DNA of 8,943 nucleotides, taken from positions 1 to 8,943 of the IMG/VR virus record IMGVR_UViG_2563366853_000003. One strand, given 5' to 3'. Positions 2,577 through 6,345 of the stretch are shown here, piece by piece. The position numbers and the translations under genes are program-made. The stretch's first letter is position 1; each line of letters opens with the position of its first letter. The notes below the pieces were generated by a model that was not told the origin of the DNA, ran no database searches, and saw nothing but the letters and a program-made list of their open reading frames with translations. The DNA comes from a virus. Its lineage: Duplodnaviria > Heunggongvirae > Uroviricota > Caudoviricetes.

Positions 2577-2610
2577 CCGCAGGCTCGTCGTATGCAAGAT
2601 CGTGCTGCGG
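2577..2610. repeat. 34-bp dyad-symmetric repeat, copy A (possible bidirectional terminator between the convergent invertase and GIY-YIG genes)
   Basis: CCGCAGGCTCGTCGTATGCAAGATCGTGCTGCGG. Arms CCGCAG / CTGCGG are flanked by T-rich sequence on both strands. By eye about 28/34 identical to copies at 3598-3631 and 6268-6301. Confidence 0.45.
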
Positions 2611-2632
2611 TTTATGCTTATCACTTAAAGAC

Positions 2633-3406
2633 TCAAAAATTAGGTGAGTAACGGACCGGGGACATAGCTCCTTTTTTTCTTAATTCATCTGGTATTTTTT
2701 TTCCAAGATAAAGATTTGCTATTTCAGGTGGGGCTTCTCGACCTTCAAAACCATAGCGAGAACTTTGTGTTGCCTCAAAGTCAGGATCTTCGTCCCAGTA
2801 TTTCATCGTAGGGAAATTTTCACGTGTTGATTTGAGCCATTTATCAGCAATGAAAACTCCTCGAACGATCCCCCTTACAGTAGCAAGAATGACTTCTGCT
2901 TGGCTGGCGCGAGAGACATTAATGCGCCAGCTAAATCGAACCGCATCATAAAGCTCTGAATCCTTTGCACTTCTGTTAACGGAAATCATTAATGCTTTAT
3001 GATGAAATGTTATGGTTTCGGGTTGATATGTTGCTATCAACTCTTTGACATGCGCGGCGCCGAATTCATTGCTGCCAGCACCATTCATGATATTCGTTAA
3101 CCCAGGGTAGGCATCAATAAGTGCTGCTTCAACTTCGTACGCCGTCTTTTCATCAGTCATTCCGTGTCGATGGATGACATGGATAACCTCAAGTCCTGCT
3201 AACCTTATTTCTCTAATTTGCTTTAGCTTGTTGCTCAGTAACTCGTCATCATCAGTCGCTGCCACTTCACCGCGCATATGGGCAAATACGCGGTTACCTT
3301 TGCCTTTCCCTACATAGAAGGTGCTTCCGTCCCTCGGATCAATCAATCGGTATACATACCAGCCAAGGTGTTCAATTACTCCAGAAGGAAACTCAGTAAT
3401 ATCCAT
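2633..3406 (-). CDS. GIY-YIG family nuclease with about 170-aa C-terminal domain of unknown function
   Basis: N-terminus [47 protein letters not shown] carries the GIY-YIG signature (YVY...YVGKG...R..H), UvrC-N / I-TevI-like. Start chosen at ATG 3406; the alternative upstream ATG at 3457 would add 17 aa. No strong SD at either. Confidence 0.75.
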
Positions 3407-3597
3407 TTTGCAATATCTATGAATTATTTGTGAGACGTATATTAATGAACATTGCAAGGGCTCACAACCAGTAGTGTTGAGAAAACTATCGGGTAAATGA
3501 GGCTAATCCTTTGAATTTACATAGTAAAAAAAGATACTTTTCCTCATAGTGTGAGCTAATTTTATGTTTCGTTTGATGATCGGACCGGTCTCAAAAA

Positions 3598-3675
3598 CCG
3601 CAGGCACGTTGTATGCAAGAACGTGCTGTGGCTGGCTGGTGAACTTCCAATAGTGCGAATATTGAATGATGTCCA
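3598..3675. repeat. repeat copy B (34-bp core plus about 45-bp extension shared with copy C)
   Basis: Core CCGCAGGCACGTTGTATGCAAGAACGTGCTGTGG. The extension GCTGGCTGGTGAACTTCCAATAGTGCGAATATTGAATGATGTCCA aligns without gaps to 6301-6345 with about 7 mismatches. Confidence 0.5.
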
Positions 3676-3794
3676 GCCGTTACCGTTTTTACGTGTTTAT
3701 TAGTGAACAAACCACTCGTCAGCAGACTCCTAGGTATGAACAAAAGTTTTAGCTGAAACTCTATCTGTGGTGCGCGTAACAGAAGTGTAATAAA

Positions 3795-3813
3795 AGGCCC
3801 TAGAAAAGGGCCT
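3795..3813 (-). terminator. putative Rho-independent terminator (- strand)
   Basis: Perfect 7-bp stem AGGCCCT / AGGGCCT with a 5-nt loop, followed on the - strand by TTTATTA. Sits 15 bp downstream of the small ORF stop. Confidence 0.5.
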
Positions 3814-3827
3814 AAGATTAGCAAAGA

Positions 3828-3971
3828 TTATCCTCGATACTTAGAGGCAGGAATTTTGATAGGAAAGGCTGCCAAGCCTTTTTGACGAGCAAAGATCCGT
3901 TTACCTTTGACCGTAATAAAAGGACGGTAAATTGTGATGTATTCCTCAGATACAGCTTTTTCAATGGTCAT
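3828..3971 (-). CDS. small hypothetical protein (47 aa)
   Basis: ATG at 3971 to TAA at 3828-3830: MTIEKAVSEEYITIYRPFITVKGKRIFARQKGLAAFPIKIPASKYRG. Followed by the hairpin terminator. Below the ORF-track size cutoff; SD is weak (AGGT). Confidence 0.35.
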   Translation of the reverse strand: MTIEKAVSEEYITIYRPFITVKGKRIFARQKGLAAFPIKIPASKYRG

Positions 3972-3997
3972 ATCGTGTTACCTGTAAAGTTTCGCTG

Positions 3998-4025
3998 TTG
4001 ACAAAACCTAAGGTAAGCGTATACT
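3998..4025 (+). promoter_or_regulatory. sigma70-type promoter (-35 TTGACA, 16-bp spacer, -10 TATACT)
   Basis: Consensus -35 at 3998-4003 and near-consensus -10 at 4020-4025. No protein-coding ORF with a start follows; a terminator lies about 45 bp downstream. Confidence 0.5.
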
Positions 4026-4031
4026 CACAAC

Positions 4032-4094
4032 CGCCAAGTTTTTCGTATTTGCTTACGATAGGAGAAGCCAGCGACAGCGGTTCGCTGGCTTTTT
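4032..4094 (+). ncRNA. candidate small RNA (about 60-65 nt) between promoter and terminator, convergent with the ImmA-like gene 3' end
   Basis: Delimited by the 3998-4025 promoter and the 4067-4094 intrinsic terminator. No start codon in the interval. Confidence 0.3.
4067..4094 (+). terminator. Rho-independent terminator (+ strand)
   Basis: Stem GCCAGCGA / TCGCTGGC (8 bp) with a 7-nt loop, followed by TTTTT. Ends 2 bp before the ImmA-like stop codon on the opposite strand. Confidence 0.55.
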
Positions 4095-4096
4095 CG

Positions 4097-4630: not shown

Positions 4631-4633
4631 TAT

Positions 4634-4984
4634 TCAGTCCTTTAACATTTTATTAAGCTTATCGAGTTGCTCTGGACTCAGGTCCTTAAATTTACGAGCA
4701 AAAACAAGCATTAGTTCTTTGTTCTGCTCATTTGCATCCGACATATCAACCTTAATGGACGGTTGAGAAATCTCTGCCTGTTTCTTGAGATTGATGATGT
4801 CTTGTCCGCTAAGCTCAAAAGTTGTTGCAATCGTATTTACTAATGAGTCCGGTATAGCTCTTTTGCCTAATTCAATGGCGGATAAGTAAGCCGAACTAAC
4901 GCCTAACAGATCAGCCATATTTTTGAGCACCATACCCCGGTCTATTCTCATTTTTCTGAGAGTCTTACCAAAGCTAGTTACCAT
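4634..4984 (-). CDS. XRE-family helix-turn-helix transcriptional regulator
   Basis: Start ATG at 4984 preceded by a perfect SD AGGAGG with a 6-nt spacer. HTH_XRE signature LRKMRIDRGMVLKNMADLLGVSSAYLSAIELGKR. The ORF-track start at 5011 is a GTG upstream of the SD. Confidence 0.8.
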   Translation of the reverse strand: MVTSFGKTLRKMRIDRGMVLKNMADLLGVSSAYLSAIELGKRAIPDSLVNTIATTFELSGQDIINLKKQAEISQPSIKVDMSDANEQNKELMLVFARKFKDLSPEQLDKLNKMLKD

Positions 4985-5010
4985 GTTGCGCCTCCTACAA
5001 TCCATGCTCA

Positions 5011-5039
5011 CTTATACTAAAAACCAAACTCAAGATCAA
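5011..5039 (-). promoter_or_regulatory. putative sigma70 promoter for the XRE/ImmA operon (-35 TTGATC, 17-bp spacer, -10 TATAAG)
   Basis: Hexamers read on the - strand, placed about 20-30 nt upstream of the XRE SD. Confidence 0.4.
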
Positions 5040-5266
5040 CAAAAATTGTAGAATTTTTTAATCTCAGCGTGTGATGACAATCTACATAAAATCATGAAAT
5101 GGTGCAAGGCGTAACTTAAAAAATACCATATGTAGTGTCAATTTTATGTGCTGTATGGATATATGGGGTTGGTAAACTTTTGCTCTTTTGTGCTCCTCAG
5201 CTATATGGTTGTTTGATTTTTGAACATCTTGTGGAACATAAATTGGGTTTATGCTTTTCCCTTTCG

Positions 5267-5294
5267 GTGACAACATGTTTATAGGATGTATAAT
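5267..5294 (+). promoter_or_regulatory. putative sigma70 promoter for the Bro-N gene (-35 GTGACA, 16-bp spacer, -10 TATAAT)
   Basis: Perfect -10 hexamer at 5289-5294, followed by SD AGGAGG at 5305-5310 and GTG start at 5318. Confidence 0.5.
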
Positions 5295-5317
5295 CCATAA
5301 AAAAAGGAGGGGATGGC

Positions 5318-6079
5318 GTGCAAAAGAATTTGTTACAATTATGCTACGAAGGAGAGTGTGGAGAAAATTATATCCGTAGCATGAATGAAAAAGGGCAGAT
5401 TTTTGTTTCACTTTCAGATGTGCTAAGAACGCTTTCTGCTGAGAACAGAAAACTGGATGGAAAGACTTCTCAAAGCTTGCTCACTGTAATAAGAGCGGTA
5501 ATAAAAACTTTAGATCCAGATGAGTTTAGGAATGTTTCTCTTGTCGTGGATGGTGAAACTATCTCTGAGGTATTTCTTACTGAACCAGGTCTATATAGAG
5601 TACTTGCTCAGGATACTACTGCTGCGGGGAAAAAATTCCAACGCTGGCTTTTTCATCAGGTCCTTCCGTCTATTCGTGAATTTGGTGTATATCCTCCGCC
5701 ACCTAAGCAAGAACGTTCAGAACTGAGTGCTTTTGCTAACAGTCTGCAGCAGACGGTTCAAGCATTGGTAATGGAAATAGAAAAACGTGAAGAGTTAGAA
5801 AGTAGAGTAAACCAAGTTGAACTAAAAGTTAACTCGTTAGAAAGTTTAAGAGATTTGTCTCAGTTCAGAAGTGTTCCTCAACGATTGATGGAGTTAGGTT
5901 TGGATACCTATTCGGTTGAGGAGCTTTGGCAATGGTGTGAAAAATTGCGTAGTGAACGTGGAGCAGAAAGAATTAAGTGCCCCTCCGGATTGAATATAAA
6001 TTCTTGCTATCCATTAGCTTTGGTTGATGAAGCTATCGCTATATACCAGAAAGTAGTTGAGGCAAGAACACGTCAGTGA
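5318..6079 (+). CDS. Bro-N domain protein (phage antirepressor-like) with a predicted coiled-coil C-terminal region
   Basis: GTG start 7 nt after SD AGGAGG. The N-terminal half (...IFVSLSDVLRTL...GLYRVLAQDTTAAGKKFQRWLFHQVLPSIREFGVY) matches the Bro-N signature; the C-terminal half is heptad-like (EIEKREELESRVNQVELKVNSLESL). Confidence 0.75.
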   Translation: MQKNLLQLCYEGECGENYIRSMNEKGQIFVSLSDVLRTLSAENRKLDGKTSQSLLTVIRAVIKTLDPDEFRNVSLVVDGETISEVFLTEPGLYRVLAQDTTAAGKKFQRWLFHQVLPSIREFGVYPPPPKQERSELSAFANSLQQTVQALVMEIEKREELESRVNQVELKVNSLESLRDLSQFRSVPQRLMELGLDTYSVEELWQWCEKLRSERGAERIKCPSGLNINSCYPLALVDEAIAIYQKVVEARTRQ

Positions 6080-6088
6080 GCTTGAGGG

Positions 6089-6118
6089 AAAAAAAAGCCC
6101 GCATAAGCGGGCTTTTTT
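6089..6118 (+). terminator. strong Rho-independent terminator (bidirectional shape)
   Basis: AAAAAAAA-GCCCGC-ATAA-GCGGGC-TTTTTT, starting 10 bp after the Bro-N stop. Confidence 0.8.
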
Positions 6119-6243
6119 ATCACTCGGGAGCTGCGGCTCCTTTGCGTATCCTTTTTTGTCTCCTCACCGTCTGGTCGGTGTCCTGCTGAGACTGCTAACA
6201 TCCTGTTTTTGTTGGTGTTGTCCTTACACCGTCCAATCATGAT

Positions 6244-6271
6244 TGGTGGAGCTGGCGGGAGTTGAACCCGC
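6244..6271 (-). other. ssrA (tmRNA) 3'-end fragment, att-site-like scar
   Basis: Reverse complement reads GCGGGTTCAACTCCCGCCAGCTCCACCA (T-arm, acceptor 3' strand, CCA), which I recall as the terminal 28 nt of enterobacterial tmRNA. No upstream tmRNA body is present. Confidence 0.55.
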
Positions 6272-6345
6272 TGACACGTCGTATGCAAGAACTTGCTGCG
6301 GCTGGATGGTGGACTTTCGATAGTGCGAGTATTGAATGATTTCCA
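6268..6345. repeat. repeat copy C (34-bp core plus about 45-bp extension), directly abutting the ssrA fragment
   Basis: Core CCGCTGACACGTCGTATGCAAGAACTTGCTGCGG, then GCTGGATGGTGGACTTTCGATAGTGCGAGTATTGAATGATTTCCA. Overlaps the ssrA fragment by 4 nt. Confidence 0.5.

Follow-up and report, generated by a model that had tools for sequence, protein, structure and literature searches.

We analysed an 8,943-nt stretch of DNA from a phage of the class Caudoviricetes (IMG/VR record IMGVR_UViG_2563366853_000003, positions 1 to 8,943; hereafter the window), in which a first-pass annotation had noticed three direct copies, here called A, B, and C, of a 34-bp dyad-symmetric element at the borders of accessory gene modules. 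The window aligned to the reverse strand of the Escherichia coli strain A22 chromosome (NZ_CP028753.1, 3543273–3552216), where it makes up the right arm of a prophage. This prophage is an e14/SfV-like myovirus whose head is of the HK97 type and whose baseplate is Mu-like, and its tail-fibre genes are invertible. The 8943 nt of the window correspond to 8944 nt of the chromosome, with a single-base indel before position ~2000, where RefSeq marks a frameshifted tail-fibre assembly gene in NZ_CP028753.1. At the opposite end of the prophage, the integrase adjoins the intact tRNA-Thr gene thrW, and at the right end positions 8405–8450 were identical to the 3′ part of thrW (46/46). Judged by this identity, 8405–8450 is the working thrW attR core, that is, the right attachment (att) core of the prophage. 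It is followed by a truncated P4-type integrase of the neighbouring vat island. The recombinases at the locus were this truncated enzyme, the serine invertase Pin, and the thrW-type phage integrase ~40 kb away.

A repeat search recovered a 37-nt core in three direct copies (2574–2610, 3595–3631, and 6265–6301) that were 84–89% identical. Copies B and C belonged to a 98-nt ungapped repeat (3595–3692 and 6265–6362, 82% identity), which extends ~65 nt beyond the dyad instead of the 45 bp first reported. With an nhmmer profile built from 30 copies outside the window, copies A, B, and C gave E-values of 4e-7, 1e-30, and 3e-30, respectively, and a degenerate 37-nt pattern matched A and B at 0 mismatches, where 200 shuffles gave an expectation of 0.00 matches. 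The similarity therefore held under formal statistics, and A, B, and C were confirmed, at the level of sequence, as homologous direct repeats. A weaker match at about 6675–6690 proved to be chance, since 95 of 200 shuffles scored as well and the nhmmer profile was silent there. Repeat search, folding, profile, and pattern together delimited copy A as the hairpin only (2574–2612, unit positions 1–39), copy B as a full unit on the minus strand with stem-loop 1, the dyad hairpin, and a U-run (3595–3700), and copy C as a full unit on the minus strand (6265–6367), whose dyad is degraded and whose base is fused to a relic of the transfer-messenger RNA (tmRNA) gene ssrA. Dyad symmetry had been ascribed to all three copies. 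It was present in A (z = −3.5) and in B (z = −2.1 in context), which folded into a hairpin of 11–12 bp with one bulge (−18.6 to −20.9 kcal/mol for copy A in a 61-nt context), but on the minus strand of copy C the long hairpin was lost (z = −0.06). The proposed position of the copies at module boundaries was borne out by gene annotation and by comparison with related loci, and the modules that they flank varied independently among related prophages.

The first module begins at the serine DNA invertase gene pinE (2020–2574, plus strand; Pfam Resolvase and HTH_7, RefSeq annotation), whose stop codon overlaps the first base of copy A. Copy A lies between the convergent genes pinE and PD-T4-3 and has short U-rich tracts on both strands. 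Its left arm was identical to that of ‘empty’ pin-unit sites such as locus L086, and its right arm came from the PD-T4-3 module. PD-T4-3 (2633–3406, minus strand), a single-gene GIY-YIG defence system, constitutes cargo 1; it was recognized by a full-length PADLOC match (E = 2.4e-140) and by Pfam LEM-3_GIY-YIG, and on its own strand it stops 22 nt before hairpin A. Homing of this GIY-YIG gene into the unit was rejected as an explanation, as homing leaves its target unduplicated and the match to a defence system spans the full length of the protein. The module ends in a feature that had been missed in the first-pass annotation, an anticodon-arm relic of the tRNA-Ser gene serU (3577–3603, plus strand; 24/27 identity to serU nt 19–46). 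This putative old att core, in which the anticodon CGA has become CAA, is fused to the base of hairpin B and overlaps it. At loci L053 and L055 the PD-T4-3 module ends in the 3′ part of serU, which in L053 is complete to the CCA, with at least 200 nt of the native downstream flank of serU after it. A junction of pin, PD-T4-3, and a serU fragment with native serU downstream flank was also found in E. coli O157:H7 TR01 (L137, at ~312 kb), with other island genes nearby; its location away from the K-12 serU position suggests a rearrangement or transduced flanking DNA.

Copy B, at the start of the second module, is the 3′ untranslated region (UTR) of a dinI-like gene, of which a pseudogene remnant is left (3700–3784, minus strand; ~28 codons of the 3′ end, carrying a 15-nt deletion and a stop), as identified by blastn and by translation against the DinI of mEp460 and PhiR63_1. 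Cargo 2 (3828–6079; annotation, Pfam, and PADLOC, with CapP/CapH-like matches) consists of two small open reading frames (ORFs; 3828–3971 and 3961–4110, minus strand), an ImmA/IrrE metallopeptidase gene (4097–4630, minus strand), an XRE helix-turn-helix (HTH) gene (4634–4984, minus strand), and a BRO-N protein gene (5318–6079, plus strand). The ImmA/HTH pair (4097–4984), which is divergent from the BRO-N gene, resembled the defence regulators CapP and CapH (PADLOC E = 5e-15 and 1e-10), and the HTH/ImmA/Bro module was 75% identical to a module of phage LLS that lies beside the ssrA attP of that phage. A perfect bidirectional terminator hairpin after the Bro gene (6084–6125; GC stem, A-run, and T-run) was the source of spurious Rfam matches to leaders and small RNAs (sRNAs). 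A type II restriction-modification system takes the place of cargo 2 in strain Sanji and in contigs L021, L056, and L095, with the left break inside hairpin B (window position 3616) and the right break at 6078.

This module ends in an ssrA-type attP arm (6080–6271, minus strand), delimited by comparison with E. coli KSC1031 and with the attP of phage LLS and by a partial Rfam tmRNA match. Its last 28 nt are an ssrA 3′ relic (6244–6271, minus strand, 28/28 identity), with TGGTGGAGCTGGCGGGAGTTGAACCCGCGT as the att identity block. The KSC1031 prophage has this arm too (pin, A, PD-T4-3, B, HTH/ImmA, Bro); there it leads directly into an intact ssrA, and the 30-nt att block is present again at the far prophage end, which indicates that the KSC1031 prophage is truly integrated at ssrA. 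The core of copy C had been described as ending exactly where the ssrA fragment begins. The two do adjoin, but they overlap, with the fragment covering the first 7 nt of copy C. Junctions of this type between an ssrA relic and the hairpin occurred in 13 distinct contexts.

In the third module, copy C is followed by a conserved ‘lambda-b’ segment of 88 nt (6368–6455), which also comes after the unit in lambda and in many prophages. It forms the left border of a variable slot, as seen in the alignment with lambda and in the homology break at 6451–6459 in eight related loci. The slot itself, delimited by comparison of related loci, is cargo 3 (6456–8139) and holds a trypsin-like S1 peptidase gene (6765–7757, plus strand). 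Elsewhere it contained retron Ec48 (LZSFT34), a PD-T4-6-like kinase, an OLD/AriA-like ATPase, PD-T7-1, or a PtuA-like (Septu-like) ATPase with a second ORF (HNH), the latter two of the same sizes as lambda ea59 and ea31; in L095 it was empty. For several slot genes, neither PADLOC nor Pfam gave a match. On its right the slot is closed by a border region that, together with the thrW-type arm and the 46-nt thrW 3′ fragment, occupies 8140–8450 (plus strand); within this stretch, 8140–8328 was homologous to the lambda DNA just left of sib (82% identity to the lambda-like L102). A small ORF in this border (8210–8293, plus strand) encodes a 27-aa hydrophobic peptide, MKEKKAAVSFDITAIFLLVMRVVVGQN, with counterparts in L102 and L095. 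In L102 (2874–5335), a 525-aa slot protein matched PADLOC PtuA of Septu (E = 5e-184), and in size this protein and the adjacent 296-aa protein correspond to lambda Ea59 and Ea31, which are annotated as an AAA ATPase and an HNH endonuclease. By this resemblance, the same slot in the b region of lambda seems to be occupied by a Septu-like pair. Four ‘simple’ relatives (L058, L086, L122, and L125) have only pin, one full unit, the lambda-b segment, cargo, and the thrW arm, an arrangement that would be the form of the incoming third module.

The dyad belongs to a conserved non-coding unit of ~97–105 nt, which on the minus strand consists of stem-loop 1, the dyad hairpin, and often a U-run. We aligned 51 distinct copies of the unit for the tests of conservation and structure. 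Conservation started abruptly at the hairpin base and ended ~97 nt further on, with a column entropy of 0.2–0.6 within the unit and 1.1–1.5 in the flanks, and both loops were nearly invariant. In a manual structure with two helices, 89% of the cells were paired across the 51 variants, and six helix pairs had changed on both sides, more than in shuffles. The alignment had no three-base codon periodicity, and the unit is therefore not coding. A coding unit had been a candidate because of a small plus-strand ORF (MKPQxRRMQERAAxGW) with a Shine-Dalgarno-like GGAGAT, present in some contexts, and of open minus-strand frames. It was rejected on the missing periodicity and on an in-frame TAG in most A-type copies, a 1-nt loop deletion in mEp460, and the absence of a start codon from many flanks. 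The motif GCTGGTGA inside the unit is one base from Chi and is not conserved.

We found no Rfam match over the three copies at E ≤ 1, and no family reached its threshold. The closest family was CssrB (RF02799), a Shigella sRNA family, with a score of 29.1 bits against a gathering threshold of 76. The aligned part was its 3′ hairpin only, to which the dyad corresponds below threshold, and the window itself contained no CssrB match. Rfam IS009 (RF02111) matched strongly in the 3′ part of tfa, just 5′ of hairpin copies (L006 655–853, L009 529–727, and others). The K-12 annotation lists no non-coding RNA at the copy in prophage Qin, and a search of the literature on named sRNAs and terminators yielded only the Klebsiella precedent DinR and no description or name of the unit. 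The unit is apparently an undescribed, widespread boundary element of E. coli temperate phages.

Copies of the unit were present in 5410 of 5426 complete E. coli genomes, at 1–10 places per genome (median 3). In a scan of one genome per species, the exact hairpin pattern was confined to Escherichia and Shigella. The exact pattern was also seen in unrelated genera (Streptomyces, Pseudomonas, Enterococcus, and others; L141, L145–L149, L159, L163, L166, L168–L172, and others), on contigs of ~48.4 kb or on tiny low-coverage contigs, and these matches are most likely lambda DNA contamination. The first-pass annotation had allowed that the repeat might be a widespread chromosomal repetitive extragenic palindromic (REP) or terminator element. 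Repeats of the REP or bacterial interspersed mosaic element (BIME) type are scattered through intergenic regions of the core genome, in tens to hundreds of copies. The low number of places per genome speaks against such a repeat, and every context inspected was prophage or phage DNA, which ties the element to mobile DNA. A further full copy on the A22 chromosome (L001 37500–37597, next to ykgJ) is not part of the prophage; it is located between yagU and the ecp operon and was probably left by the end of an older prophage.

In E. coli lambdoid and e14-like phages, the unit is located between the tail-fibre/invertase end of the late operon and leftward accessory genes. Its commonest position was the 3′ UTR of a dinI-like gene or directly after the stop codon of pin or tfa. 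The ~107 nt directly 3′ of dinI-like genes was 87–92% identical to unit B in 197 phage records. With dinI on the minus strand, the unit is the dinI 3′ UTR, and in mEp460, PhiR63_1, and Stx phages the dinI stop codon is where it starts. In lambda, a full copy lies at ~24160–24264, between ea31 and ea47, and a hairpin-only copy at ~22572–22614, just after tfa, so that the two flank ea47. HK97 has one copy between tfa and sib, the K-12 prophage Qin has one unannotated copy near its end, and the hairpin or the unit was also found in phi80 and Stx phages. Two or more copies were present in 52 of the 131 loci that carry the unit, in direct orientation in all but one. The intervals of such arrays in other loci held lambda ea47, an acetyltransferase with a dehydratase, an omptin, or unknown proteins.

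The position of the unit suggests a function at transcript ends. The unit marks the point at which rightward transcription of late genes (tail fibre, tfa, pin) converges on leftward accessory genes, and it forms the 3′ end of the latter. The stem has 11–12 pairs with one bulge, and on the minus strand it is followed by UUUUU(G) in copy B (U5–6), by UUUCAUUUAU in copy A, and by GGUUCAACUCC, without a U-tract, in copy C. About half of the 51 variants had four or more U after the hairpin. From these features we infer that the hairpin may act as a context-dependent, partly bidirectional transcript-end or RNA-stabilizing element, which would insulate the cargo from the late operon.

The flanks of the unit occurred in several combinations. 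The left flank with the pin stop codon was paired with five right-flank classes, and the lambda-b right flank was paired with seven left-flank classes. Lineages switched at the hairpin base (L055), in the loop (A compared with L086), and in stem-loop 1 (L123). Such scattered switch points are expected of homologous exchange in a shared patch and speak against a recombinase acting at a fixed position. The comparison of loci shows the unit to be a shared homology patch across which flanks reassort and cargo modules are exchanged between phages.

Each of the three cargo modules of the arm is followed by one relic or att core, in the order serU, ssrA, and the working thrW attR. All are directly oriented and lie within the element or at its end, as in an array of att relics. 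We consider it probable that the arm arose by serial switching of att sites, which stacked modules of unit, cargo, and att, with the unit acting as a transcript-end hairpin and a recombination linker. The arm would then consist of three former prophage ends, each with a unit, cargo, and an att core: pin and hairpin A with PD-T4-3 and the serU relic; unit B with the dinI remnant, HTH/ImmA/Bro, and the ssrA relic; and unit C with the lambda-b segment, the protease slot, and the thrW attR. The integration site of the lineage would have changed from serU to ssrA to thrW, an order that follows from each later stage holding the earlier relic. At each switch, a module from another phage, running from the unit to attP and int, would have joined the edge of the old att core to the incoming hairpin base. 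The tRNA and tmRNA relics would be the scars of these events, and the repeats the conserved first element of each incoming accessory and att module. The suggestion that copies A and B are scars of older insertions was therefore right in that the array records old integrations, with copy B abutting the serU relic, and wrong in that the repeats themselves are not the scars.

Extant junctions agree with these steps. All three stages were found in databases, namely the serU junction in L053, the intact ssrA in KSC1031, and the window type at thrW, and the extant serU and ssrA junctions carry the same arms as the relics in the window. In both joints between relic and hairpin, the att identity block borders with its edge on the hairpin base, and TGAACCCGC of ssrA stands against TGAAACCGC of the hairpin, and GAAAACCGG of serU against GAAAACCGC of the hairpin. 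The proposed joint sequence is 8–9 nt of near-identity, GAA[A/C]CCGC, and variants of the ssrA joint have A or C at the single differing base. The joints may have arisen by microhomology-mediated joining or by integrase-mediated recombination at a secondary site. A more specific version holds that the hairpin base (TGAAACCGC / GAAAACCGC) is a preferred secondary attachment site of tRNA- and tmRNA-targeting integrases, since its sequence is similar to the cores in the ssrA T-loop and the serU anticodon arm. An entire phage could then integrate into the accessory arm of a resident prophage, and recombination of the backbones would leave a hybrid that has a new integration specificity and keeps both defence sets. 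We regard this version as rather unlikely; if true, it would provide a defined, repeatable route by which lambdoid phages stack defence cassettes and switch their att sites.

Several observations weigh against serial stacking with a transcript-end hairpin. The loop was the best conserved part of the hairpin, more conserved than either stem arm, and its near-invariance is explained neither by a plain terminator nor by a mere homology patch. The covariation was weak, as the sequences were too alike, and RNAalifold found almost no consensus structure in the 51 variants. A U-run was missing from about half of the left-flank classes, among them the full lambda unit, the loop of 9–11 nt is longer than the 3–8 nt of intrinsic terminators, and a scan with a consensus terminator listed none of the three copies. 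Given the narrow host range, the conservation could mean recent spread and not selection. Both joints between relic and hairpin rest on short similarity.

We weighed three other explanations. The one nearest to the first-pass annotation takes the repeat as the element-side arm of an ssrA attachment site, with A and B as arms from older insertions. Copy C does directly abut the ssrA 3′ fragment, and this junction recurs in the 13 contexts given above, but at working ssrA-type att sites (both prophage ends of KSC1031 and the attP of phage LLS) the unit was absent on both sides of the core. Copy B abuts serU and copy A the pin stop codon, neither of which is ssrA, and in lambda and HK97 the unit lies outside attP, ~3.5 kb away and beyond sib, respectively; we give this explanation next to no credence. 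It is also very unlikely that the dyad is a dedicated site-specific recombination site, similar to integron attC or to dif/Xer, at which a recombinase moves circular cassettes and duplicates the hairpin. Compared with an empty pin-unit site (L086), the filled sites of the window and L018 do look as if the insertion of PD-T4-3 had added a single period from one hairpin to the next. Direct arrays whose intervals contain one or two genes are common, copy A is directly adjoined by a recombinase gene, pin, and the loop is the part of the hairpin that is best conserved. However, the lineage switches at the several positions given above leave no fixed cleavage point, and many arrays, including those of lambda and HK97 relatives, have no adjacent recombinase. 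The Pin crossover sites (75–94 and 1939–1958) are unrelated to the dyad, which had no similarity to the pin inverted repeats in a repeat search of the window. No IntI-type integrase or attI adjoined the copies among the recombinases at the locus and in the prophage, and arms of 11–12 bp around a centre of 10–12 bp match no known tyrosine or serine recombinase core. The cargo has mixed orientation and its own regulatory signals, and modules ending in tRNA att relics favour grafting of whole arms over capture of cassettes.

The unit might also be kept mainly as a trans-acting sRNA derived from the 3′ UTRs of dinI-like and other leftward transcripts, as in the case of Klebsiella DinR, with its position at module edges being incidental. 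The canonical position in the dinI 3′ UTR, the dinI remnant kept at copy B, the architecture of two stem-loops with a terminator and U-run in many copies, and the two nearly invariant loops all fit such an RNA, and DinR itself is an sRNA that depends on Hfq and is released by cleavage from the 3′ end of dinI (PMC10907235). On the other side, the unit belongs to no Rfam family at threshold and is not annotated in K-12, and many copies (lambda, HK97, copy C) have no dinI, no promoter-bearing upstream gene, or no U-run. The authors of the DinR study call the stretch that pairs with ftsZ Klebsiella-specific (PMC10907235), and an sRNA alone would leave the arrays and the att relics unexplained. We consider a primary role as an sRNA doubtful.

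On the reading that we favour, serial stacking at changing att sites, the window is a readable record of one phage lineage that changed its integration site twice while accumulating defence genes. The unit is also a sequence landmark, even in lambda, for the borders of accessory and defence slots in E. coli lambdoid and e14-like prophages, and it can be used to find new cargo. A nearly invariant RNA or DNA hairpin in the best-studied phage presents a testable question.

Among known systems, integron attC sites resemble the present arrays in that imperfect dyads lie between single-gene cargo in direct arrays. The present arrays differ from them by having no integron integrase, no attC core motifs, no fixed crossover point, and cargo with its own signals. 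DinR, the sRNA derived from the dinI 3′ UTR of Klebsiella pneumoniae, has a Klebsiella-specific seed (PMC10907235). It shares with our unit the genomic position in the 3′ UTR and terminator of a dinI gene. The two are not known to be related in sequence, and the E. coli phage unit also occurs without dinI.

Mosaicism of lambdoid phages, terminators at moron and module boundaries, and linker sequences are said to have been described in the modular theory of Susskind and Botstein and by Juhala et al. in 2000 and Clark et al. in 2001. Morons are mentioned in PMC4104026. The boundary linkers and our unit are alike in being short conserved non-coding border sequences across which modules reassort, with a hairpin after accessory genes. 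In contrast to those linkers, the unit is one specific sequence of ~100 nt, with a near-invariant loop, that nearly all E. coli genomes contain and that is repeated in direct arrays.

Tandem arrays of tRNA and tmRNA att fragments left by serial integrations were reportedly treated by Williams in 2003 under the title ‘Traffic at the tmRNA gene’. There, as here, directly oriented 3′ fragments of ssrA or tRNA genes mark past integrations. Here, however, three target genes (serU, ssrA, and thrW) are represented in one prophage, which amounts to changes of specificity and not to reuse of one site, and one and the same conserved hairpin is fused to the serU and to the ssrA relic.

Rousset et al. reportedly described hotspots of defence genes in P2 and P4 in 2022, and Vassallo et al. 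described PD-T4-3 in the same year (both cited in PMC11364771). Those hotspots and the present slots both have a fixed location and conserved flanks around alternative anti-phage systems, here PD-T4-3, retron Ec48, PD-T7-1, and a Septu-like system. The present slots differ in belonging to a lambdoid and e14-like ‘b region’ and in being bordered by a repeated RNA-like unit together with att or sib sequences.

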